This document shows positions 3,016 to 58,492 of a stretch of DNA of 64,000 nt, one piece after another. This DNA is from an uncultured Bdellovibrio sp. (GTDB lineage: Bacteria; Bdellovibrionota; Bdellovibrionia; Bdellovibrionales; Bdellovibrionaceae). Position 1 is the stretch's first letter; the number at the start of each line of letters is the position of its first letter. Where the stretch lies: assembly GCA_966211795.1 (NCBI GenBank), contig CBIHNW010000025.1, forward strand, positions 3,787-67,786, read 5' to 3'. Both the position numbers and the translations under genes were made by a program. Below the pieces are notes generated by a model. It did no database searches. It saw only the letters and a list, made by a program, of their open reading frames with translations, and had not been told where the DNA came from.

Positions 3016-4598
3016 AAAAATCCTCCGATGCCAGCCTCAAGCATTCGGCTCTGCTGCTGTTGATGAGCGACCGCCAGGATCGTGAGGGCCCGCTTGTCGA
3101 TTTTACCCCGACTGGTGACCGGAAGCTCGTCCATCGCCAGCACCAAAGAAGGCGTGCAGTAATAAGGTAGCAAATGCGCGACTTGGTTTTTAGCGCTCTC
3201 AACATCGACGTGACCGGGTCTCACGAAGGCCACCAAGTTTCGGCTGTCGAGCTTCAAGGTCACGGCCTGCTCGATTTCAGGAATCTTCTCTAAAGCGGCC
3301 GACACCGAGTCCAGCTCCACCCGAAAGCCACGGATCTTCACCTGATCATCGGTGCGGCCAAAATGTTCAAGCTCCCCATCGGCGGTCCATCGGCCAAGGT
3401 CCCGGGTGCGAAACATTTTTCGTCCGCCACCCAAGAAGGGATCATCTTTGTATCGCTCTTCCGTCAGGACGGGATTGCCAATATACCCCAAGGACACACA
3501 GTCACCGCCCGCCCACATCTCGCCAATCTCGCCGATCGCACACGGTGTGAGATCTTCATTCAGAATGTAGACGCTATTATTGGGCGTGGGCTTACCGATA
3601 GTCAGTTTCCCTCTCTGTGGATCATACTCGTGAACCGTGTTGACGATCGTGACTTCGGTGGGCCCGCACGAATTGTGAAAGCGGCAAAACTGGGACCACT
3701 TCTCGGCTAAAGAGGCGGGGCAGGGCTCGCCGGCGACCGCGGCCACTTTGATATTTCGGCAAAGATTGGCATCCAATCCTGCTAGGATGCTTGGGGTTCC
3801 GATCACGACGTCGACTTGGCTGACGGCCTCTTGGATGCTTTTCCCCCGAATGATCAACTCGCAGCCATGCGACAAGGCCCCAAGAATTTCCCAAGCCGCC
3901 ATATCGAAGGCGATATTGAGAATCTGCGAAACCTTCTGACCGGCCCGCAAGCCTAAATCCCCAGGCGAGGTCAGTAGAATATTGCAAAGATTTTGATGCG
4001 TGACCATCACTCCATTGGGAAAGCCCGTCGTTCCAGAGGTGAACAAGACAAAGCAAAGCTGATGGGCCAAAGCCACATTTCCAGCATCGATTTGCGGATT
4101 CTCGGCTGGTGCGTCTGATTGTTTCTGCATGAATTCATCAATCGCCAGCAATGGAATGTCTTTGAATTCTGGCAATGTCGGCACAAGATCTTTCAGCGTC
4201 AGGATCATTTTGGATTTTGATGTTCGCGCAACGTGTTGAAGCTGAGGGCCCGGCGCAATCCGCGAATCTTGCGGGACATAGGCCGCGCCAGTTTTCAAAA
4301 TGCCCAAGATGCCCACAACCATGGAAATCGAGCGCTCTAGAAAAAGCGCAATGTGATCTCCCGGACGAACTCCTTGATGAATTAAATGTTTGGCCAGAAG
4401 ATTCGCCCGACGGTTCAACTCACCATAGGAAATCGTTTGGTCCAAGTGGGACACGGCCGGGGCCTGCGGATGCCGTCTCACCTGATCTTCAATCGCCCGG
4501 TGGATCAACGAATGCGGTGGCTTCACGCTTTCGGCGAAGCCAAATTTTTCAAAAAGAATTTGATCTTGATTGGATAAAGTTTGCAGTTGCGCTTTCAT
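3012..4598 (-). CDS. stand-alone NRPS-type adenylation (AMP-binding) enzyme
   Basis: Core motifs read in order: ISYGEL (A1), LKTGAAYVPQD (A2), FTSGTTGFPNG (A3), FDMAAWE (A4), NSCGPTE (A5), GEMWAGGDCVSLGY (A6), FRTRDLG (A7), GRTDDQVKIRGFRVEL (A8), LPYYCTPS (A9), SRGKIDKRAL (A10). The protein ends after A10 with no carrier domain. Confidence 0.85.
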   Translation of the reverse strand: MKAQLQTLSNQDQILFEKFGFAESVKPPHSLIHRAIEDQVRRHPQAPAVSHLDQTISYGELNRRANLLAKHLIHQGVRPGDHIALFLERSISMVVGILGILKTGAAYVPQDSRIAPGPQLQHVARTSKSKMILTLKDLVPTLPEFKDIPLLAIDEFMQKQSDAPAENPQIDAGNVALAHQLCFVLFTSGTTGFPNGVMVTHQNLCNILLTSPGDLGLRAGQKVSQILNIAFDMAAWEILGALSHGCELIIRGKSIQEAVSQVDVVIGTPSILAGLDANLCRNIKVAAVAGEPCPASLAEKWSQFCRFHNSCGPTEVTIVNTVHEYDPQRGKLTIGKPTPNNSVYILNEDLTPCAIGEIGEMWAGGDCVSLGYIGNPVLTEERYKDDPFLGGGRKMFRTRDLGRWTADGELEHFGRTDDQVKIRGFRVELDSVSAALEKIPEIEQAVTLKLDSRNLVAFVRPGHVDVESAKNQVAHLLPYYCTPSLVLAMDELPVTSRGKIDKRALTILAVAHQQQQSRMLEAGIGGFL

Positions 4599-45221: not shown

Positions 45222-46424
45222 CTAGGCCGCCACCTTCTGCTGATCGATGATCTGCCAAAACTCGGGAAAACTTTTGTGCACGACTTCGGGATGCAGAATC
45301 TGGATCGATGAGGTCTGTGACGCCACCAATGCCGCGGCAAACGCCAACCGATGATCATGATCCGTATCATAGGAAAATGAGCTGGTCGGCATCACCAATC
45401 GCGCCGGTGGATGAACTTCCATTCCGTCCGGCAGGATCTTCGTTTGCACCCCGAGATGGCCAAGCAGTTCCGCCGTCTTCTGGATGCGATTGGATTCTTT
45501 AAACACCAAGTGCGGAGCCCCATCCAATCGGGACGGACCCTTCGCGAAAGCGCACAAGGTTGCAAGCACCGGAAAAAGATCCGGGCACTCGTTCAAATTC
45601 CAATGCACACCTTGCAATGATACCAGACCCGGAGTTTTTTGAAAGATGCGAACATGATCCGCTCCCGTCTCGACGCCGGCTCCCATTTTTTCGAGGATTT
45701 GCACAAACACCTTATCGGGTTGCAAGCTCTGAAAGGGGAAACTGCGAAACGTGGCCTCGCCATTCAAAGCGGCATAGGCCGCGATCGCGAAGCTTGAGCT
45801 TAAATCGCTTTCAATTTGGTACTGCCGAATCTGCACCTTCGAGTGAGCTGGGATCAAAACACCCTTCTCAAAATTTTCCAGGCGCATGCCAAAGTCCTTC
45901 ACGACCTGGGTCGACATCTGCCAATACCCTTCAGAAACGCCGGTCTGATCCCATTCGATCTTCAACGGAAAGTCCAGGTCCCAGGCATTGAGCAAAATGC
46001 CCGAGACAAACTGGCTTGATTTTTCGCGATTCACGCGAAGGCTCAGTTTTGGTTTTTGCCACCCGCGGCTGTGAATGATCAACCGATCGGTTTGAATTTC
46101 GATTCGCACACCGAGCTGCTTTAAAATCTCGACCAGATCTTCTTGCGGCCGACTGAGAAGTCGGGGCGTGCCTTTCAAAATATGCACGCCGGGGATTCTG
46201 GACGCTCGCAAAGCCAAGAACCGCAACACGGTGCCGGCACTGCCGCAGTCGTAAATTGACTCGCGCTGCAGACGCGCGAAGGCTTCTTTCATCTTCAAGA
46301 CGTCATCACAGGTCGACTCGCCCTTCAGGACGACCGAAGGCGCGTAAGAGCCGCAGATCAACGCTCGGTTGAAGTGCGACTTGGAAGCCGGGATGACGCC
46401 GTCATAGCGAAAAAGGCTTGGCAT
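45222..46424 (-). CDS. aroA: 3-phosphoshikimate 1-carboxyvinyltransferase (EPSP synthase)
   Basis: PASKSHFNRALI, DCGSAGTVLRFL, KESNRI. The start overlaps the upstream stop by 1 nt. Confidence 0.9.
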   Translation of the reverse strand: MPSLFRYDGVIPASKSHFNRALICGSYAPSVVLKGESTCDDVLKMKEAFARLQRESIYDCGSAGTVLRFLALRASRIPGVHILKGTPRLLSRPQEDLVEILKQLGVRIEIQTDRLIIHSRGWQKPKLSLRVNREKSSQFVSGILLNAWDLDFPLKIEWDQTGVSEGYWQMSTQVVKDFGMRLENFEKGVLIPAHSKVQIRQYQIESDLSSSFAIAAYAALNGEATFRSFPFQSLQPDKVFVQILEKMGAGVETGADHVRIFQKTPGLVSLQGVHWNLNECPDLFPVLATLCAFAKGPSRLDGAPHLVFKESNRIQKTAELLGHLGVQTKILPDGMEVHPPARLVMPTSSFSYDTDHDHRLAFAAALVASQTSSIQILHPEVVHKSFPEFWQIIDQQKVAA

Positions 46425-47473
46425 CAGGCCGCCTTTTTCTTTGGAATTTCGGTGACCACATTGCGATCCAATGCCGTCCCCATCGCTTTCAAGCGGGCCA
46501 TCAGTTGCGAAAAATCCGTCGGCAATAAAGCTTGCGGACCATCTGACAATGCCTCTTCGGGTTTGTCATGCACCTCGACGATCAAGGCATCCCCACCGGC
46601 CGCCATTCCGGCCAAGGCCATTGGTGACACCAAGTTTCGATATCCGGTTCCGTGACTGGGGTCGACGACGATCGGCAGATGCGTGAGCGATTTCAAAATC
46701 GGAATCGCGTTCAAATCCAGCGTGTTTCTGGAATATTGAGTGTCGAAAGTGCGGATGCCCCTTTCGCATAGAAGGACCTTGCGGTTGCCGCCTGCCAGAA
46801 TGTACTCGGCGCTCATCAACCATTCTTCGATGGTCGAAGACATGCCCCGCTTCAGCATCACGGGCTTATCGATCTGACCCAGCTCTTTTAAGAGCGAAAA
46901 ATTTTGCATATTGCGCGCACCGATTTGGATGATGTCGACATAATCCATCATCATCTTCAGGCCTTCTGAATCCATGGCTTCGGAAATCACCGGCATGCCG
47001 GTTTCCTCGGACGCCATTTTCAGGATCTGCAGACCTTTCTCACCCATTCCTTGAAATGAATACGGCGAGCTTCGGGGTTTGAAGGCTCCCCCGCGTAAAA
47101 CCGTGGCCCCCGCCTTGCGAACCGCGCGCGCAATGCGCATGGTTTGATCTTCACTTTCGACCGAGCAAGGTCCCGCCATCACGATCAACGAGCCAGCCCC
47201 CCCGATCTCGAGGCCCTTGACTTGAATCTTGGTGCCCTCGGGATTTGCCTGTTTGCTGGCAAGCTTGAAAGGTTTTGAAACGCGAAACACGCTTTCGATA
47301 AAGGGAAAGGTCTCAAATTCCTTGAGCTGAATTTTCTCTGTCTTCCCGAGCAAACTGATGGTGCACTGATTTTGTCCTTCGACCACATGGGCTTTCAAAC
47401 CCAGTTTCTCGATCTTCTGCACGACTTCGGCAATTTGTTCTTTGGTCACGTTCTGTTTGGTGACAATGATCAC
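46424..47473 (-). CDS. DAHP synthase, type I-beta with an N-terminal ferredoxin-like regulatory domain
   Basis: MAGPCSVES, GGAFKPRSSPYSFQG, VDPSHG. I place the start at the GTG at 47473, which forms a GTGA overlap with the upstream stop and follows an AAAGGGGG RBS. The ORF track extends to 47656. Confidence 0.85.
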   Translation of the reverse strand: MIIVTKQNVTKEQIAEVVQKIEKLGLKAHVVEGQNQCTISLLGKTEKIQLKEFETFPFIESVFRVSKPFKLASKQANPEGTKIQVKGLEIGGAGSLIVMAGPCSVESEDQTMRIARAVRKAGATVLRGGAFKPRSSPYSFQGMGEKGLQILKMASEETGMPVISEAMDSEGLKMMMDYVDIIQIGARNMQNFSLLKELGQIDKPVMLKRGMSSTIEEWLMSAEYILAGGNRKVLLCERGIRTFDTQYSRNTLDLNAIPILKSLTHLPIVVDPSHGTGYRNLVSPMALAGMAAGGDALIVEVHDKPEEALSDGPQALLPTDFSQLMARLKAMGTALDRNVVTEIPKKKAA

Positions 47474-48723
47474 GAGGCCCCCTTTTTCTGTTTGAGACTT
47501 TGAAATTGATGGTAAAACTGATTGGCCTCGATGAAGAGGCTTTGCTGCTGATCCTTCACATCCTGCGATTGGCTTTGGCAGGATTGAAGCTCTTGCACCA
47601 GCTGCGCCAAGGCCGTCTGCACGGCCTGGTGATTGCTGTTTAAAATGGATTCCCAAATGGTGAACGAAGATCCACTGACCCGCAACAAGTCACTGATCAC
47701 ACCCGGAAAAAATTCAGGATTTTGCGCGAACGATTTGTCTTTCAAACACACGGCCATCACGCTCGATAAAAGCTGCGGCAGGTGACTGGTCCACGCCAAA
47801 GCTTCGTCGTGCTCGTGAGCCTGGGTCCAAAACGGACGAGCACCCACAGCCAAAGCCAAAGCTTCACAGGTGGCTTTGCAGGAATCGCTGACGGACCCGG
47901 AAGCGGTCCAACAAAAAACTTTGTTATAAAAAAGCATGCTATCGGCGTTCTGAAAGCCCGAAACCTCTTTGCCGGCCAGCGGGTGACCGCCAACATAGAC
48001 AAATGAACTTGGTTTTTCTTTCTGTCTTCGCAGATAGGTTTTCTGCATCAGCTCTTTGGTGCTACCGAGATCCAAAACCAAAGCGCCGTTTGGAAATGGA
48101 AATTCTAACAGGTACTGCGCATTGATGTCGACCGAAGCGGCCAGCACATAGATCGCGGCCGGATGCATGTGCGATGGATCCGTAATAAAATGCAAATTGG
48201 AAAACTGATTCTCTTCTTTCCACTGAAGAAAGCTTGCCAGCGGCAATCCCGGATCAAGCACTTCGAATCGCCAATGCGGCAGAGCTTCGCTTAACGCTAA
48301 ATAGAAGCTTGCCCCCAGAAGACCAAATCCGCAAAGCGCCACCGTCTGACTTTTTGAAAAATCAAGATGCGCTTTCTCGACCATGGTTTCGACCAGGGCC
48401 TTTTGCACATGAGCGCCTTCTAAAAAGCGAAAGCGCTCCACCAGGGTCATAAACAAAGCTTCCATCTCAGAAGGAGACAGCGGTCCTTCGCTACCAGCAG
48501 CCTGACGGACCTTTTGGCGGATGCGACCCTCGCGGGCCGGATCGTAAATCGGCATCTGGCGTGCACGCTTGTACTCGCCGACCGAAAACACCAGCTGAGC
48601 ACGCTCTTTGAGCAAAGCGAAAAGTTGCTGATCCACGCGGTCGATACCCTGGCGCAGGTCTTCCAAATTCAGATCCTGAGCCGAATGCTGCCCGGGCACT
48701 TTGGCTTTGAGCGCAAAAGTCAT
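47470..48723 (-). CDS. tyrA: bifunctional chorismate mutase (AroQ) / prephenate dehydrogenase
   Basis: N-terminal LRQGIDRVDQQLFALLKERAQLVFSVGEYK (CM type II). The remainder is a Rossmann-type PDH (VALCGFGLLGASF). Confidence 0.85.
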   Translation of the reverse strand: MTFALKAKVPGQHSAQDLNLEDLRQGIDRVDQQLFALLKERAQLVFSVGEYKRARQMPIYDPAREGRIRQKVRQAAGSEGPLSPSEMEALFMTLVERFRFLEGAHVQKALVETMVEKAHLDFSKSQTVALCGFGLLGASFYLALSEALPHWRFEVLDPGLPLASFLQWKEENQFSNLHFITDPSHMHPAAIYVLAASVDINAQYLLEFPFPNGALVLDLGSTKELMQKTYLRRQKEKPSSFVYVGGHPLAGKEVSGFQNADSMLFYNKVFCWTASGSVSDSCKATCEALALAVGARPFWTQAHEHDEALAWTSHLPQLLSSVMAVCLKDKSFAQNPEFFPGVISDLLRVSGSSFTIWESILNSNHQAVQTALAQLVQELQSCQSQSQDVKDQQQSLFIEANQFYHQFQSLKQKKGAS

Positions 48724-48988: not shown

Positions 48989-49567
48989 TCAAAAACAGTC
49001 CTTCGCCAAAAAGTCGATGTGTTCGCGAATATCCTTGGGCCACGTCTGCACCATGCGATCAAAGGTCTTTCGATCATTGGCAAAAAGGCTGCGAAGGGCC
49101 TCTTCGTAATTTGGAAAATCACCCGCCTTGGTCGTCATGAATTTATAAGTCGCGTTTTGCGATTGACGAATTTCGTCTTTCACCCGACTTTTCTTTCGCG
49201 CCTCTTCGACCAATTTTCGCAACGTCACCGAAGCTCCACCCGGTTGGGTCGCAAGCCACTCCCACTGGTTTGGCAAAAGCCCAATTTCCCTCGAGACCAC
49301 GCCCAGCTTCGGTCTGCCGGGGCCGACCTTCTTTTCTGGATTCTGCCTTTCCATCTCAGCCTGCAGGCGCTCGAGAAGTGTCTCGGACTTTCGCCGCAAA
49401 TCGATCTCCACCAGCTCGCTGGTTTGGTTATCGAACAGTTCAATCTCGGCTTCTTTGTTTTTCTTCAAGTACTCGAGACTTTTTTCCACCACGCTCAGCA
49501 GATGTCCGCTGCCGACTTTCTTATTGCCGGCAAATGCCGTGCATTCCCGATCTATTCTTGGCTCCAT
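48989..49567 (-). CDS. DUF2239-family protein
   Basis: CTAFAGNKKVGSG at the N-terminus and GPGRPKLGVVSREIGLLPNQWEWLATQPGGASVTLRKLVEEA match my memory of DUF2239 sequences. Confidence 0.65.
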   Translation of the reverse strand: MEPRIDRECTAFAGNKKVGSGHLLSVVEKSLEYLKKNKEAEIELFDNQTSELVEIDLRRKSETLLERLQAEMERQNPEKKVGPGRPKLGVVSREIGLLPNQWEWLATQPGGASVTLRKLVEEARKKSRVKDEIRQSQNATYKFMTTKAGDFPNYEEALRSLFANDRKTFDRMVQTWPKDIREHIDFLAKDCF

Positions 49568-49760: not shown

Positions 49761-50912
49761 ATGAAAAACTGGATGCAAGTTTCAAAATTGATGATGATCG
49801 CTGCGGCTTCAGCCGCTTTGGCAAACCCGCAAGCGCTCGCCGCTCAAAGCACGGTCACCTCCGTAGATCACCCGATCGCCACTCAAAGCTCGGTCACCTC
49901 CGTAGCCAATGCCGTCACCGCCGAATCCTTGCTGCAATCTCGCATTCAGCGAGAAGCCGACGCCGGCGTTCCGCTCAAACACCGATCGATTCTCACCAGG
50001 GGACAAGGACACCCTTGCAAAACACTCTTGATGTTTCCGGGCCTGTACGAATCACCGGCGTATTTGAAGGGCTTGACCAAGTATTATACGAGCCACGGCT
50101 TTAACGTCGTGGCTTTGGGCCTGAGCGGCCACTTTCGCGCCGGCGATCCCGAGATGCGCCACTTCAGTTATCAGGACTGGCGTCACGACACGGAAGAGGG
50201 CTTAAAGATCGCCAAGCTTTTGGGACAGCCCGTTTTCGTTTTTGGTTACTCGACAGGCGGTACGATGGCCGCGGATCTGGCCCTGAGATTCCCGAAAGAC
50301 GTTTCCGGATTGTTTTTATTTGCGCCCGCCCTGGATGTCACCGATTCCGTTCGCAACATGGTTCACCTGGGCTCCTTGCTCAACATCCAACCGGTCGCAC
50401 TTTGCAATAAAGAGAAGCTAAGCCCCATGTGCAAAGCCATCGCCCACGTCGCCGCTGGCGGCGTGCAGAAAGCCCGCCCACTTCTGGCAGAAGGACTGTC
50501 ATGGTCCCCGTTTGCTGGTCTACAAGTGCATCGTTACGTTGAAGCGATCTACAAAGAGCGTTCCGCCGCTTACACCACACCAACCGGCAGTGGCGATGGC
50601 GAGCGAAGCCTCAGTCGCAGCGAAGTCTTAAGCCAAATTTACGGCCAGATCTCAGCGCCAACTTTCCTCGTGGTCGATGAAGGAGATCTTACGGTCGCAA
50701 CACCCTTGTCAGAAAAGGTCTTTGAAAATCTGCGCGGCCCAAAAGACATGATCGTCTACAAAGAGAAAGACGGCATCGCCCACACCAACATCACCAAATA
50801 TGCCGAAGACAGTTTCAAAGGATCGCCAGAGCATTACAACCACTTCACCGACGATCTTGAAAAACGAATGGACCGCTTCCTCGACCAAGTTTCAATTTCT
50901 TGCGAAAAGTAA
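49761..50912 (+). CDS. secreted alpha/beta-hydrolase
   Basis: Signal peptide. Nucleophile elbow GYSTGG. An N-terminal 13-aa tandem duplication (QSTVTSVDHPIAT / QSSVTSVANAVTA). Confidence 0.75.
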   Translation: MKNWMQVSKLMMIAAASAALANPQALAAQSTVTSVDHPIATQSSVTSVANAVTAESLLQSRIQREADAGVPLKHRSILTRGQGHPCKTLLMFPGLYESPAYLKGLTKYYTSHGFNVVALGLSGHFRAGDPEMRHFSYQDWRHDTEEGLKIAKLLGQPVFVFGYSTGGTMAADLALRFPKDVSGLFLFAPALDVTDSVRNMVHLGSLLNIQPVALCNKEKLSPMCKAIAHVAAGGVQKARPLLAEGLSWSPFAGLQVHRYVEAIYKERSAAYTTPTGSGDGERSLSRSEVLSQIYGQISAPTFLVVDEGDLTVATPLSEKVFENLRGPKDMIVYKEKDGIAHTNITKYAEDSFKGSPEHYNHFTDDLEKRMDRFLDQVSISCEK

Positions 50913-52405: not shown

Positions 52406-53386
52406 TTATTTGTCCTGGCTCGGCATGCGTTTTTTGTTTTTGGATCGCTGCGCTTCTTCTTCGCGCACTTCCTCGGCGTTTCCTTTGACCAGGAAGGACT
52501 TTTCCATGGCTTTGATTAGCACCACGGCCTCGTCCAAAGCTTCCAGCGCTCGGCGGCTGGACTGCGGAAGATCGGGCGCAATTTCAGCCAAGGCCGGAAT
52601 CACGACTTTGAACTCTTCCGTTAGCACGGCCAAATTGCCCACAAGCTTTGTCATGTCCTTTGCCATGTGGGGCGCTTCGCGATTGATCTCGGGAATGATT
52701 TGATTGAGCTCTTTCGTCGTCACGGCAAGCTCTTTTAGCACCACGCCCAAGTTTTCATCCTTAGTGGCCTGACGCGAAAGTTTGATCACTTCAAGCGACA
52801 TCGTGTTGAGGCTTTTCAGCAAGGGATCGATGCGGTCAAAGGCATTGATGAAGGCCTGCGTTCGATTTTTATCCAAAAACGCTTCCGCCAGAAACTTGAG
52901 ATTGTCCATCATTCCGCTCATGGTCTTTAAATAAGTGCCAAGCTCGCGGCCACTCATCAGCGTCAAGAGATCCATGCCTTCTTCAGACGCCATCGCGCTG
53001 CCATCGGCCAAGGGGCCGGCGGTGGTTGAGCCCACCGAAATGTCGAGCACGCGATCGCCGATGACGAAAGGTCGAATCAATTGGGCGACCGAATCGGTTT
53101 TAATTTTTCCTTCGAATTTGCTGAGCACGTAGAACTTGACCAAAATGCGGTTGTCGCTCGTCAGCTCCACTTCTTCGACGCTGCCGGCTTTCAGACCTTG
53201 AATCTGAACCGTCGTCCCCGGATGCACGCCATCACCTGAAACAAATGAAGTGGACCAATGAAGTTTGCTATCGAACCAGCCTTGCTTCACGGCGACGCTT
53301 AAAAGCGCCAGCACGAAGCCCGCGATCGAGGCCGCGACAAAAATGCCGGCGACACGTTCAAACTTATTGAACTTCACATGATTCAT
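52406..53386 (-). CDS. MlaD-like MCE-domain protein with a long helical C-terminal extension
   Basis: N-terminal TM anchor and the MCE core GVHPGTTVQIQGLKAGSVEEVEL. ATGA overlap with the upstream gene. Confidence 0.8.
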   Translation of the reverse strand: MNHVKFNKFERVAGIFVAASIAGFVLALLSVAVKQGWFDSKLHWSTSFVSGDGVHPGTTVQIQGLKAGSVEEVELTSDNRILVKFYVLSKFEGKIKTDSVAQLIRPFVIGDRVLDISVGSTTAGPLADGSAMASEEGMDLLTLMSGRELGTYLKTMSGMMDNLKFLAEAFLDKNRTQAFINAFDRIDPLLKSLNTMSLEVIKLSRQATKDENLGVVLKELAVTTKELNQIIPEINREAPHMAKDMTKLVGNLAVLTEEFKVVIPALAEIAPDLPQSSRRALEALDEAVVLIKAMEKSFLVKGNAEEVREEEAQRSKNKKRMPSQDK

Positions 53387-54093
53387 AAACTGACGACTTT
53401 CTTTTCCCCATCGATGACGTCTTGATAAATTGTGCCGCAATCAATGAAAATTTCTTTGTGCGGCAAACAGTTCATCAACTGTTCATCAAAGGAACTGATG
53501 AAGACGTGCTGGGCTTTGTCTTTTTTGCGAAGCTCTTGCACGCAATCGAAAAATTTCAAAATTTGATCCTGACCCAAACCCACGCTCGGATCATCCAAGA
53601 GCAAAACTTGGGGCTCTAACATCAGCGCGCGGATCAGGCACGCCATTTTGCGCACACCACCCGGAACGGTTGAAGGACGCAGGTTTGCAAACTTTTGCAC
53701 GCCCAGCATTCGCATGTACTCGGCTGCCCGATCTTCCGCTTGTGGCTTCGAACAAACCTTATGATACACCAATGGCAGAGTGATATTTTCAAGCAGCGTG
53801 CGGTTGTGCAAAAGCCCGCCGAAATCAAAGCCGTAACCGATGCTGGTGCGGTAGGGAAGAAATTCCTCGAATGACATTTCGGCCACGTTCACGTCGTTGA
53901 TCAGGTACTGACCCTTTTGGGGAACCACGAGCCCCGCCATGATTTGCAAGAGCGACGAGCGGCCCGATCCCGACGAAGCCTTCACCCACACGATTTCATT
54001 CATAGGGAAGTCAAAGTCCACTTGCTCGAACAAGGGCTCTTGGCCCTCGTGGTGAAAGGTCAAGCCTTCGAATTTTAAGCTTTGGATCTTCAT
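53383..54093 (-). CDS. MlaF-like ABC nucleotide-binding-domain protein with degenerate catalytic motifs
   Basis: NBD-length protein colinear with ABC ATPases. Walker A reads SSGSGRSS, the Q-loop region YGFDFGG, the signature VPGGV, Walker B LLLDDP, and the H-loop region FISSFD. Confidence 0.75.
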   Translation of the reverse strand: MKIQSLKFEGLTFHHEGQEPLFEQVDFDFPMNEIVWVKASSGSGRSSLLQIMAGLVVPQKGQYLINDVNVAEMSFEEFLPYRTSIGYGFDFGGLLHNRTLLENITLPLVYHKVCSKPQAEDRAAEYMRMLGVQKFANLRPSTVPGGVRKMACLIRALMLEPQVLLLDDPSVGLGQDQILKFFDCVQELRKKDKAQHVFISSFDEQLMNCLPHKEIFIDCGTIYQDVIDGEKKVVSL

Positions 54094-55028: not shown

Positions 55029-55598
55029 TCAATAAGCCCAGGTGGCGTAGAACATGGACTTCAGGACTTCGGTCGAGATTTCCCAAACGCTGGACTCGGA
55101 CCGACCGGGATTCACCGCGAAAGGAATCAGCTGAATTGTCTCAGGATAGCTCGCATGAAAGGTCTGCAGGGCGCGGTACATGTGAAAGTTCGAGGTCACG
55201 ACCGCCACGTCTCGACAGGACAGCGCTTCGACCAAAGGCAAAGTCTGCTGGGCATTTCCAAAAGTCGTCGTCGAGCGACGATCGAGCACCACATCTTTTT
55301 CGCTGACGTCACCGTAGAAGGGCCAAAGCGGAAAAATATCTCGCAATGTCGCATTGGCAAAAACGCCCGAGATGATCAGCTTCTTCACCTGCCCGCGCGA
55401 AAGAAGATCCAAGCCTTCCCGCACGCGGTTCGATCCACCCGTCAACACCACTGCACAGTCCGCACTGATATCATCCGTCCACGAATTGATCGGCTGCGAG
55501 GAAATGATTCGGTATTCACGGCCAAAGGCAATCGCGAAGCCAATGACCATAATCAGGACAAGGTAAAAAACTGGGCGCTTGGGCCAAGCCTTTATCAC
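55029..55598 (-). CDS. DUF218 (YdcF/SanA/ElyC-like) protein
   Basis: N-terminal TM, AVVLTGGSNRV, VVTSNFHMYRA. Confidence 0.75.
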   Translation of the reverse strand: MIKAWPKRPVFYLVLIMVIGFAIAFGREYRIISSQPINSWTDDISADCAVVLTGGSNRVREGLDLLSRGQVKKLIISGVFANATLRDIFPLWPFYGDVSEKDVVLDRRSTTTFGNAQQTLPLVEALSCRDVAVVTSNFHMYRALQTFHASYPETIQLIPFAVNPGRSESSVWEISTEVLKSMFYATWAY

Positions 55599-55605
55599 GC
55601 GGTCA

Positions 55606-55983
55606 TCACTTGGCGGCGGTCACTTCGATTTCAACGTTCACACCTTTTGGCAAAGCCGCGACCGCAACGGTCGAACGTGCCGGAGGTTGCTCGGTGAAAA
55701 AACGTCCGTAAACTTCGTTCACGGTTTGAAAATCACCCATGCTGGTCAGGTAAATCGTGGTCTTGACGACGTTCTTGAAAGTCAAACCGGCCGCTTGCAA
55801 GACCGCATCGATATTTTTCATCACCAATTCCGCTTGGCCTTTGATGTCGCCAGTGAAAACCTGATTGGTTGCTGGATCCAAAGGAATCTGGCCCGAGCAG
55901 AAAACCAAATTTCCGACTTCGATCGCTTGCGAGTAAGGACCGATTGGAGCTGGAGCGCTATTTGTCAAAATCACTTTTTTCAT
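55606..55983 (-). CDS. ridA: RidA-family reactive-intermediate deaminase
   Basis: APAPIGPYSQAI, FCSGQIP, the C-terminal ARSTVAVAALPKGVNVEIE. Start at the MKKVIL ATG at 55983. Confidence 0.9.
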   Translation of the reverse strand: MKKVILTNSAPAPIGPYSQAIEVGNLVFCSGQIPLDPATNQVFTGDIKGQAELVMKNIDAVLQAAGLTFKNVVKTTIYLTSMGDFQTVNEVYGRFFTEQPPARSTVAVAALPKGVNVEIEVTAAK

Positions 55984-56008
55984 GTTCAACCTCGATTGCA
56001 ATGATCGA

Positions 56009-56500
56009 TTAAAAGTAAAAAACAATTCCGGCATTCAAGAAAGAATCACCCAGCGTGCGAAAACGAGTTTTCTTCACCGTCGTGATCCCCATGCCTGTCT
56101 CAAAATTAAATCCCAAAGAATCAAGCCCCGGCAGAAAAAATTCGCCACCCACCACGGCCGCCACTTCGTAGCCCGAGTCCTTGCTGCTGGCAACCTCTTG
56201 ATTGACCATCGCCACGTGCCCGCCGCCAAAGAAATTCATATTTTCTTCCTTGAAGATCAAGCGCCGGACGCCACCAGCAAAGGCAAATTTCGAGTTGTTA
56301 TCTTCCGTGTCCACGCCCAAAGATCCAAAGACGTTAAAATCCGGAGATGGATAATAGAAAATCGCGACACTTGGAAGGCTCATGGTCACCAACGAGTTGC
56401 GATAGCCCACGCCCATACGGCTGGTGAGGTCCTTCGCATTTGCGGTTGCCGCCAATCCCAATGCGCTGATGAAAATACTGAATGCCAAAAAGAATCTCAT
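56009..56500 (-). CDS. small outer-membrane beta-barrel protein
   Basis: Signal peptide MRFFLAFSIFISALGLAATANA. Alternating strands and a C-terminal ...GIVFYF. Confidence 0.65.
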   Translation of the reverse strand: MRFFLAFSIFISALGLAATANAKDLTSRMGVGYRNSLVTMSLPSVAIFYYPSPDFNVFGSLGVDTEDNNSKFAFAGGVRRLIFKEENMNFFGGGHVAMVNQEVASSKDSGYEVAAVVGGEFFLPGLDSLGFNFETGMGITTVKKTRFRTLGDSFLNAGIVFYF

Positions 56501-56653
56501 GTCGTCTCCGTGCTGTATCAAAAAATGAACCCCTTTATTCAAGCGGCACTTGTCAAAATCAGCAACGAAAATGGCGTGAGGCAACATGTCATGCCACCAC
56601 TATGGACAAGCGCCAGGTCCTCAAGTACGGTTTTGAGAAGTCATTTTCAATGT

Positions 56654-56729
56654 GGGCCTGTAGCGCAGCTGGGAGCGCGCTTGCATGGCATGCAAGAGGT
56701 CGTCGGTTCAATCCCGATCAGGTCCACCA
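56654..56729 (+). tRNA. tRNA-Ala (anticodon GGC)
   Basis: Cloverleaf folded by hand: acceptor GGGCCTG/CAGGTCC with the G3:U70 alanine identity pair, D-stem GCGC/GCGC, anticodon stem CTTGC/GCAAG with loop ATGGCAT, T-arm GTCGG-TTCAATC-CCGAT, and an encoded CCA. Confidence 0.9.
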
Positions 56730-57768: not shown

Positions 57769-57973
57769 GATATGGGAGCCAACAAAATCTCGATTTCGGC
57801 ACTTCTTCTGTCGTTGGCGTAGTCATTTCGACGGAATGAGATTTTCTGAATTACAAACATTAGCACCCCGATCAACGTAGCATCCGTCAAACCGAACTAT
57901 GCCTTGGGTATTGACTCTGGAATACTCATTGCAAGATGGGCCGCTGGAATCAAATCGGCACCAGGGGGTCACT

Positions 57974-58492
57974 TTGAAAATTCGAAATTTTATTTTTGCT
58001 ATCGCATTTTTTCTTCTCGCCTATTTAACTGCAAGCGCCTGCCCATCCATCTGTGGCTCGCCAACCTGCAGCGGCTATGATGGTCCCGGCGGCCCATGCT
58101 ACAGCGGTCCCGGCGGACCCATGTATGCCGGACCCGGTGGCGCCATGTATGATGGCCCCGGCGGGCCTCGGTACTCAGGTCCCGGTGGTGCGTGCTACGA
58201 CGGCCCCGGCGGAGCCTGTTATGCGGGTCCTGGCGGACCTGATGATTCGGGCCCGGGCGGCGCATGTTACGACGGTCCCGGTGGACCTCGATATTCGGGC
58301 CCCGGTGGTGCGTGCTACGATGGACCGGGCGGACCGCTTTATGATGGTCCCGGTGGCCCCCGATATGACGGCCCTGGTGGCACTTGCTACGACGGACCGG
58401 GCGGCAATTGTTATAGCGGCCCCGGGGTTTACGGATCTGGCGCTCACTGCCCTCGCATCTGCACCAATCCTTGTCCCTGCCCAAACAACTAA
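57974..58492 (+). CDS. secreted GPGGxxYx octapeptide-repeat protein with Cys-rich caps
   Basis: TTG start 5 nt after AGGGGG. Signal peptide (M)KIRNFIFAIAFFLLAYLTASA. Then come 14 consecutive GPGG-x-x-Y-x units flanked by CPSICGSPTCSG and CPRICTNPCPCPNN. Confidence 0.6.
   Translation: MKIRNFIFAIAFFLLAYLTASACPSICGSPTCSGYDGPGGPCYSGPGGPMYAGPGGAMYDGPGGPRYSGPGGACYDGPGGACYAGPGGPDDSGPGGACYDGPGGPRYSGPGGACYDGPGGPLYDGPGGPRYDGPGGTCYDGPGGNCYSGPGVYGSGAHCPRICTNPCPCPNN

Follow-up and report, generated by a model that had tools for sequence, protein, structure and literature searches.

A putative pseudo-ATPase subunit encoded in a conserved Mla-like operon of Bdellovibrionota

The operon and the catalytic motifs of its nucleotide-binding subunit

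The window analyzed here is a stretch of 64,000 nucleotides from an uncultured Bdellovibrio sp. (GenBank assembly GCA_966211795.1, contig CBIHNW010000025.1) with a G+C content of 51%. It contains an Mla-like operon in which the gene for an MlaE-family permease is followed by genes for an ATP-binding cassette (ABC) nucleotide-binding domain (NBD) and an MCE-domain protein. Two ATGA overlaps, in which the TGA stop codon of one gene shares nucleotides with the ATG start codon of the next, join mlaE to the NBD gene (54090-54093) and the NBD gene to the MCE gene (53383-53386), and the translational coupling on both sides noted in the initial annotation is therefore present in the sequence. The MCE open reading frame (ORF) delimited mechanically begins with TTG at 53440 and overlaps the NBD gene by 54 nt. 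The frame from ATG 53386 opens with M-N-H-V-K-F, and this start is consistent with orthologs such as that of locus L001. The NBD had been called the sole ATPase of the operon, and a regular expression search of all six frames of the 64-kb window revealed no second ABC NBD with Walker A and LSGG motifs. No second NBD gene was present at the orthologous loci examined. No mlaC, mlaB or mlaA gene lies beside the operon, and no STAS gene is among its neighbors. A promoter and terminator scan of the operon boundaries gave nothing above shuffled expectation.

Residue correspondences were established by HMMER alignment of the NBD with Pseudomonas aeruginosa MlaF (7ch8), its top PDB match by phmmer (86.7 bits, with LolD at ~80 bits), and by manual gap-free alignment with P0348, a canonical MlaF. 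The MlaF strings FGVLFQSGALF, ELSGGMKRR and LLYDEP align with IGYGFD90FGGLL, TVP144GGVRKM and LLLD167D168P, respectively. The H-loop was placed in two registers. In the gap-free register (catalytic Glu +33) Ser201 occupies the His position, and this placement is supported by the YtrE and BceA profile alignments and by counting along P0348. MAFFT, like the initial annotation, inserts a gap that pairs S-H-D with S-F-D and puts Phe202 at the His position. Apart from this one-residue ambiguity the HMMER, MAFFT and manual registers agree. The NBD lacks the Walker A Lys, Q-loop Gln, signature Ser, catalytic Glu and H-loop His of a competent ATPase, so that in these alignments all five catalytic positions are replaced (Table 1).

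Most of the motif readings in the initial annotation survive formal alignment. Replacement of the Q-loop Gln, here by Asp90, the change of LSGG to VPGG and the H-loop without His are all borne out. The Walker A Lys is indeed replaced by Arg, but the string given for the motif was one residue out of register and the loss of its first Gly went unremarked. Likewise the catalytic Glu is replaced as claimed, but the Walker B string 'LLLDDP' was one residue off and Asp167, the Walker B Asp, is kept.

Table 1. Genes of the operon and its conserved surroundings, and motif equivalents of the NBD. Positions refer to the window.
Feature	Position	Strand	Evidence or remark
RidA (L-PSP) family protein, conserved upstream neighbor	55606..56034	-	PF01042, 151 bits
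DUF218 (YdcF/SanA/ElyC-type) protein, conserved upstream neighbor	55029..55598	-	PF02698, 57 bits
MlaE-family permease, 272 aa	54090..54908	-	PF02405 MlaE, 223 bits; TIGR00056, 173.6 bits
Degenerate ABC NBD, 236 aa, ATG start	53383..54093	-	PF00005, 69.9 bits
Walker A equivalent, A39-S-S-G-S-G-R45-S46 (MlaF GPSGCGKT)	53956..53979	-	First Gly to Ala, Lys to Arg
Q-loop Gln to Asp90, within the invariant block I-G-Y-G-F-D-F-G-G	53824..53826	-	MlaF alignment
Signature equivalent, V143-P144-G-G-V (canonical LSGGQ/M)	53653..53667	-	MlaF alignment
Walker B, V-L-L-L-D167-D168; Mg-binding Asp kept, catalytic Glu to Asp	53590..53607	-	MlaF alignment
H-loop equivalent, S200-S201-F202-D203, no His in either register	53485..53496	-	Two alignment registers
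MCE-domain protein, 326 aa from ATG 53386	52406..53386	-	PF02470 MlaD, 40 bits
LolC/LolE-like FtsX-family permease, 409 aa	51162..52391	-	TIGR02212 lolCE, 208 bits (cutoff 362); Pfam FtsX, 53 bits

The protein is recognizable as an ABC NBD. Pfam ABC_tran (PF00005, cutoff 25) matches residues 23-170. An AlphaFold2 model built from a 26-sequence alignment has a predicted local distance difference test score (pLDDT) of 90.8 and a predicted TM-score (pTM) of 0.88, with only residues 227-236 disordered. Foldseek matched the model to FtsE (8ymc, TM 0.85) and to MceG of the Mce1 complex, MlaF, YbbA and LolD, all with E values of 1e-19 to 1e-21. Given the confidence of the model and these matches, the NBD is predicted to be a complete, well-packed fold. 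At 236 aa it is shorter than MlaF (~269 aa), and the last 10 residues form a tail that is conserved in sequence (K231, V234, L236) and disordered in the monomer model.

Family affiliation is less specific. Among NCBIfam models the NBD scores 104 bits with LolD (TIGR02211, cutoff 307), 92 with FtsE and 80.3 with MlaF (NF008809, cutoff 441). Scores against the family profile are 142 bits for YtrE, 137 for BceA and MJ0796, 135.6 for Acinetobacter baumannii MlaF, 135 for FtsE and 132 for LolD, placing MlaF, LolD, FtsE, YtrE and BceA all within 10 bits. Specific descent from MlaF or from LolD was considered and is not separable by these scores. Since the sequence has no specific affinity to MlaF over LolD, FtsE or YtrE, the term 'MlaF-like' used in the initial annotation is apt for operon position but, as judged from these scores, not for sequence affinity.

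The MCE protein has an N-terminal transmembrane helix and a single MCE domain at residues 46-118 (PF02470). By sequence this domain is closest to the Mycobacterium smegmatis Mce1-complex subunit 8fed_D and to YebT/LetB, ahead of MlaD. The C-terminal ~190 aa are predicted to be helical, with helices over residues 129-319 in a single-sequence AlphaFold2 model whose pLDDT of 44 makes it a hint of secondary structure only. MCE orthologs give weak matches to Pfam Helical_needle. The protein thus resembles the bridge or needle type and not a short MlaD that hands lipid to MlaC.

Conservation of the substitutions and selection on the subunit

A search of 5.8 billion proteins gave 489 matches to the NBD, of which the best 120, with 96% to 56% identity, were examined. 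These close homologs include members of Bdellovibrio, Pseudobdellovibrionaceae and Oligoflexia. In the resulting 121 close sequences D90 is invariant (121/121), D168 is present in 120/121 and P144 in 116/121. Phe or Tyr occupies position 202 in 120/121, and position 45 is Arg in 89 sequences and Lys in 32.

Species-level orthologs were collected with the window MlaE, one locus per species. At least 80 loci were obtained, almost all labelled Bdellovibrionota, together with a few metagenome-assembled genomes (MAGs) labelled otherwise. Complete genomes such as NZ_CP102930.1, CP168971.1 and NZ_CP178622.1 are among the sources. Full-length NBD ORFs were recovered from 79 loci, 76 of them distinct, and most of the fetched loci have an uninterrupted frame. 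The Q-loop position of these 76 orthologs is never Gln (D in 71, E in 4, G in 1), and the H-loop His is found in 1/76. At the catalytic position 168, 65 orthologs have Asp and 7 have Glu. In the signature, position 144 is Pro in 50 and Ser in 18, and the second Gly is variable (R30/S26/G18). Walker A position 45 is Lys in 52 orthologs and Arg in 24. Other positions of the site are kept: G44, K/R45 and D167 are each found in 76/76, and the A-loop residue F13 is F in 69 and Y in 5. Bdellovibrionales orthologs conserve the nucleotide-binding elements F13, G42, G44, K/R45, S/T46 and D167. Conservation of the substitutions in orthologs, which the initial annotation had named as a check, holds in both sets, as they recur in the 120 homologs down to 56% identity and in the 76 species-level orthologs, far more often than chance would give. 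Because these orthologs do not have the canonical residues, strain-specific decay and sequencing error are excluded.

Gene order is conserved with the substitutions. The order RidA-DUF218-MlaE-NBD-MCE-(LolC-like) was found by tblastn in most of the 80 loci, and MlaE-NBD-MCE is kept in nearly every fetched locus that extends far enough to reveal it. The tight ATGA coupling and the invariant MlaE-NBD-MCE order, which extends to Bacteriovoracaceae and to unplaced metagenomic lineages, argue for stoichiometric co-assembly of the three proteins. MlaE is the most conserved gene of the operon, with 63-95% identity across the 80 Bdellovibrionota species listed; an uncultured Bdellovibrio MAG encodes an MlaE with 95% identity to that of the window.

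To reach more distant relatives, 1.84 billion cluster representatives were searched exhaustively with phmmer, which gave 117 clusters at E<=1e-30. The distant family was defined as the 106 full-length members with a residue other than Gln in the Q-loop and Gly at position 92, so that the absence of Gln (0/106) and the presence of G92 reflect selection criteria. None of the 106 representatives has the H-loop His, and the Q-loop position is D or E in 93/106. The Walker A Lys is present in only 53/106, the others having R, V, C, T, Q, S, I and more, and the catalytic position is D in 53, E in 26 and N in 10. Canonical NBDs appeared only below ~145 bits. Distant members on fetchable contigs are encoded as MlaE-NBD-MlaD in a Bacteriovoracaceae MAG, a wood-metagenome contig and the contig of P0214. 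The P-loop of P0214 is unrecognizable ('SDDKNQASE'), yet its gene still lies between mlaE and mlaD. Single-protein scans with P0185 and P0214 found only unrelated canonical NBDs of Acidobacteriota, Verrucomicrobiota and others at 19-33% identity. P0335-P0337, which at ~147 bits are the best canonical NBDs against the family profile, were considered as Bdellovibrionota MlaF paralogs and rejected; P0337 lies in a Bacteroidota-type locus with Por_Secre_tail neighbors. P0340 and P0347 are, like P0348, ordinary canonical MlaFs.

Selection was examined with ten relatives. Synonymous divergence (dS) is saturated, at least 0.84 wherever computable, while nonsynonymous divergence (dN) of the NBD is 0.09-0.36, indicating purifying selection with dN/dS roughly 0.1 or less. 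NBD dN is 1.4-2.8 times that of MlaE, and amino acid identity is 34-60% for the NBD where it is 63-78% for MlaE. An NBD that diverges faster than its permease reverses the pattern of ordinary ABC systems, whose best-conserved subunit is the NBD.

None of the positions at least 85% identical across the 106 representatives lies in Walker A. These positions are G61, N66, R82, G86, F89, G93, L94, N97, N103, L106, Y110, H111, P140, K149, R155, P161, L166, D167 and P169, and they cluster at the Q-loop and where the helical subdomain begins. In ABC transporters these two regions form the groove that receives the coupling helix of the permease. By analogy with known structures the conserved positions would be the permease-facing surface of the NBD, and at the level of sequence the family-wide constraint has shifted away from the ATP site.

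A proposed non-hydrolyzing subunit and its alternatives

These results make it moderately likely, as far as sequence can tell, that the NBD is a pseudo-ATPase, deficient in hydrolysis and retained in a structural or regulatory role. Retention of a non-hydrolyzing subunit is the best reading because the motif alignment, the orthologs, purifying selection, the fold and the behavior of an MlaF mutant all point to it. In Escherichia coli the ATPase activity of MlaF(K47R)EB is undetectable and the allele fails to complement an mlaF deletion, while wild-type MlaFEB turns over at ~1.8 s-1 (PMC5016091). From its alignment the window NBD naturally carries the equivalent of the K47R substitution together with four more. 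Since the catalytic residues are lost and the loss is conserved under selection across the predatory phylum Bdellovibrionota, the transporter probably operates without its NBD subunit hydrolyzing ATP. The initial annotation had proposed a non-hydrolyzing structural subunit. Its first term stands as the best reading, but the conserved nucleotide-binding residues suggest that the NBD may bind ATP as a switch or sensor and need not be a purely structural piece.

In the mechanism proposed with the same moderate confidence, the folded NBD would sit on the cytoplasmic face of the MlaE dimer, under the MCE hexamer, and would no longer hydrolyze ATP; the assembly would be 2:2:6 (MlaE2-NBD2-MCE6). The NBD of this organism and of its Bdellovibrionales relatives probably still binds Mg-nucleotide, since it has kept the aromatic A-loop residue and the glycines of the P-loop together with K/R45, S46 and the Walker B Asp. 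It would stabilize and position MlaE through the groove formed by the Q-loop and helical subdomain, and in its nucleotide-bound state would perhaps lock or gate the complex in one conformation. Lipid passage through the MlaE-MCE conduit would be passive or powered otherwise than by NBD hydrolysis, possibly gated by nucleotide occupancy. Hydrolytic chemistry would have been lost before the radiation of the NBD family, and nucleotide binding would have been lost in some lineages outside Bdellovibrionales. A further-reaching reading, in which the whole phylum Bdellovibrionota maintains an MCE transporter that has given up ATP hydrolysis and keeps its two pseudo-enzyme NBDs only as a nucleotide-sensing or structural clamp on MlaE, with lipid flow passive or gated, is tentative, and we give it a little less than an even chance.

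Several observations weigh against a hydrolysis-deficient subunit. The ortholog L054, from the Bdellovibrionaceae MAG JACKAN010000010.1 (NBD at ~3745-4443), has GSTGSGKST, LLLLDEP and VFSSHDE and departs from canon only in the Q-loop Gln, replaced by Glu, and the signature Ser, replaced by Pro. Less degenerate sequences such as this suggest that activity may differ between lineages; L054 itself may represent a natural intermediate or have partly reverted, and it would be useful for comparative biochemistry. Asp is sometimes a weak substitute for the catalytic Glu, making slow turnover conceivable, and the conserved acidic Q-loop residue could coordinate Mg2+ or water. The strong P-loop conservation in Bdellovibrionales would be superfluous in a purely structural role. 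Finally, transposon sequencing (Tn-seq) of Bdellovibrio bacteriovorus 109J bears on the importance of the system. The orthologous operon, recognized by exact neighbor order matching that of L001, comprises EP01_RS04845 (L-PSP), 04850, 04855 (permease), 04860 (ATP-binding protein) and 04865 (the MCE protein, annotated 'substrate-binding protein') (PMC6561027, Data Set S2). Its fitness (W) values of 1.4-1.9 in all four predation conditions are in the neutral range of the data set (PMC6561027), so the operon is dispensable for predation on E. coli and Vibrio cholerae. The LolC-like gene 04880 was scored 'ND', like essential genes (PMC6561027).

In one rival reading the NBD is a genuine but slow ATPase with a non-canonical catalytic set. 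Asp168 would serve as the base, Asp90 would coordinate either Mg2+ or water, and Arg/Lys45 would act on the phosphates, so that transport is ATP-driven at low turnover. The P-loop glycines, K/R45, S/T46, Asp167 and Phe13 are conserved in the 76 orthologs, of which 52 keep the Lys, and the acidic Q-loop position (75/76 orthologs and 93/106 distant representatives) suggests selected chemistry and not drift. We nevertheless regard slow hydrolysis as unlikely. K47R inactivates MlaF (PMC5016091), the H-loop offers no His, and another residue stands in for the signature Ser. Across the wider family, about half of the clusters have Val, Cys, Thr, Gln or another residue instead of the Walker A Lys, and one lineage has no P-loop at all, with operon position unchanged in each case. 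The NBD also evolves faster than the permease.

Hydrolysis could instead be borrowed, as the initial annotation also considered, from an ATPase encoded elsewhere, for example the NBD of a second Mla-type cluster or a LolD, which would heterodimerize with the degenerate subunit or replace it on MlaE. Strain 109J has a second Mla/Ttg2-type cluster, EP01_RS00890-00900, next to an alanine racemase gene and separate from EP01_RS04855-04865 (PMC6561027). EP01_RS00890 is annotated 'organic solvent transporter substrate-binding protein' (W 0.26 / 1.0 / 0 / 0.03), EP01_RS00895 is an ATP-binding protein (ND) and EP01_RS00900 an 'organic solvent resistance transporter permease' (PMC6561027). As annotated, 109J therefore has another Mla-type system with its own NBD. 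In addition, no LolD gene adjoins the LolC/LolE-like permease gene, which neighbors the operon in the window and in most Bdellovibrionales, so that an orphan LolD-type NBD must be encoded somewhere, and a shared ATPase has a precedent in MceG, which serves several mycobacterial mce operons. On the other hand the degenerate NBD is coupled on both sides and always present, and should fill both NBD sites of the MlaE dimer. Even a mixed dimer would keep degenerate elements in both composite ATP sites, because each site joins the Walker motifs of one subunit to the signature of the other, and the second cluster's NBD is at best a candidate for a canonical ATPase. A borrowed engine is therefore rather improbable in our judgment. 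Quite apart from the source of energy, the MCE-type gene of the second 109J cluster is strongly required (W 0-0.26 in three of four conditions), unlike the dispensable operon with the degenerate NBD.

Nothing beyond the unusual motifs themselves would speak for gene decay, for an error of sequencing or assembly or for an alignment in the wrong register. Intact ORFs, substitutions shared by 76 species and ~100 clusters, dN/dS of ~0.1 or less, a confident fold and agreeing registers rule these explanations out, and we retain for them only the slightest probability.

Related transporters and flanking genes

The closest architectural parallel to the operon is MlaFEDB of E. coli, P. aeruginosa and A. 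baumannii, which has the same mlaE-NBD-MCE order with overlapping start and stop codons, a PF02405 permease and a single-MCE-domain protein with an N-terminal transmembrane anchor. The modeled fold of the window NBD superposes on MlaF. However, MlaF is a canonical ATPase with a long C-terminal 'handshake' extension that wraps the neighboring MlaF, whereas the window NBD is without the catalytic residues and seems to have only a short conserved tail in place of that extension, and the ~190-aa helical extension of the window MCE protein has no counterpart in MlaD. LolD, FtsE and YtrE resemble the NBD in length (~225-240 aa) and give its best NCBIfam or profile matches, though at scores far below the family cutoffs; the NBD differs from them in lacking the catalytic motifs and in having MlaE and not an FtsX-type permease as its partner, although a LolC-like gene lies just downstream. 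The mycobacterial Mce1 and Mce4 systems likewise combine an MlaE-like permease (YrbE) with MCE proteins bearing long helical 'needle' extensions. Their NBD, MceG, is canonical and encoded outside the mce operons, in contrast to the degenerate NBD inside the operon described here, and they have six MCE genes where the window operon has one, implying a homohexamer.

Degenerate ATP sites are well known singly in heterodimeric ABC proteins. In TM287/288, TAP1/2, CFTR NBD1 and Pdr5 the catalytic Glu is replaced by Asp or Ser, the H-loop His is lost and the signature is degenerate, and such sites bind ATP without hydrolyzing it. To our knowledge these proteins always retain one consensus, hydrolyzing site. 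The window operon has a single NBD gene and no consensus partner NBD. Because that one gene serves the operon, both sites of a homodimer would be degenerate and neither would be consensus, a stoichiometry that we infer.

Also known are MCE systems that have no ABC engine, as in Pqi and Let, or that share one, as with MceG. PqiABC and LetAB/YebST are MCE-based lipid conduits without an ATP-hydrolyzing subunit; PqiA and LetA are unrelated to MlaE, and neither system has an NBD. The window operon differs from them in keeping the ABC architecture with, as its motifs suggest, the engine disabled. In the literature searched, including a phylogenomic study of Mla in Veillonella, no published description of a degenerate NBD at the MlaF position was found. 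To judge from the searchable literature, a conserved, operon-encoded NBD with all catalytic motifs replaced has apparently not been described for an Mla/MCE system.

The need of Mla/MCE transporters for ATP hydrolysis is still under debate, as is the direction of lipid flow that would require it. If the reading of a non-hydrolyzing subunit is true, a conserved MlaE-MCE system whose sole NBD is hydrolysis-deficient would be a direct test case for that debate. With the operon one could ask how much an MlaE-MCE conduit achieves when it has no engine, what nucleotide binding contributes by itself and which surfaces of the NBD serve assembly only. As an ABC transporter degenerate at both of its sites the system would be a rarity, and it would illustrate cleanly how an enzyme becomes a pseudo-enzyme inside a membrane complex. 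It would further be a natural intermediate between the ATP-driven Mla/Mce systems and the engine-less Pqi/Let systems. Members of the NBD family are now annotated as 'MlaF', 'FtsE', 'LolD' or 'YtrE' ATPases, which is misleading.

The LolC/LolE-like gene begins after a gap of 14 nt from the MCE stop codon. Most Bdellovibrionales loci that extend far enough have a LolC-like gene 3' of the MCE gene, and none is present in the Bacteriovoracaceae locus L084. Beyond it the operon is flanked by an alpha/beta hydrolase gene at 49761-50912 (+). An aromatic amino acid biosynthesis run at 45222-48723 (-) encodes EPSP synthase, a DAHP synthase with a ferredoxin-like domain and chorismate mutase/prephenate dehydrogenase, and is followed by a DUF2239 gene at 48989-49567.

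On the other side, a tRNA-Ala (GGC) gene at 56654-56729 (+) lies just upstream of the RidA-DUF218-Mla-like gene block. Between it and the RidA gene is an ORF of 192 aa (56009-56587, -) with no Pfam match. Its product has an internal signal-peptide-like segment (…FSIFISALGLAATANA) and the C-terminus …GIVFYF, and looks like a small outer-membrane beta-barrel. A 197-aa ORF at 57899-58492 (+), also without a Pfam match, has a hydrophobic N-terminal segment and a Cys-flanked repeat array rich in Gly, Pro, Tyr and Asp (…YDGPGGPRYSGPGGACYDGPGG…), suggesting that it may encode a secreted or surface repeat protein.

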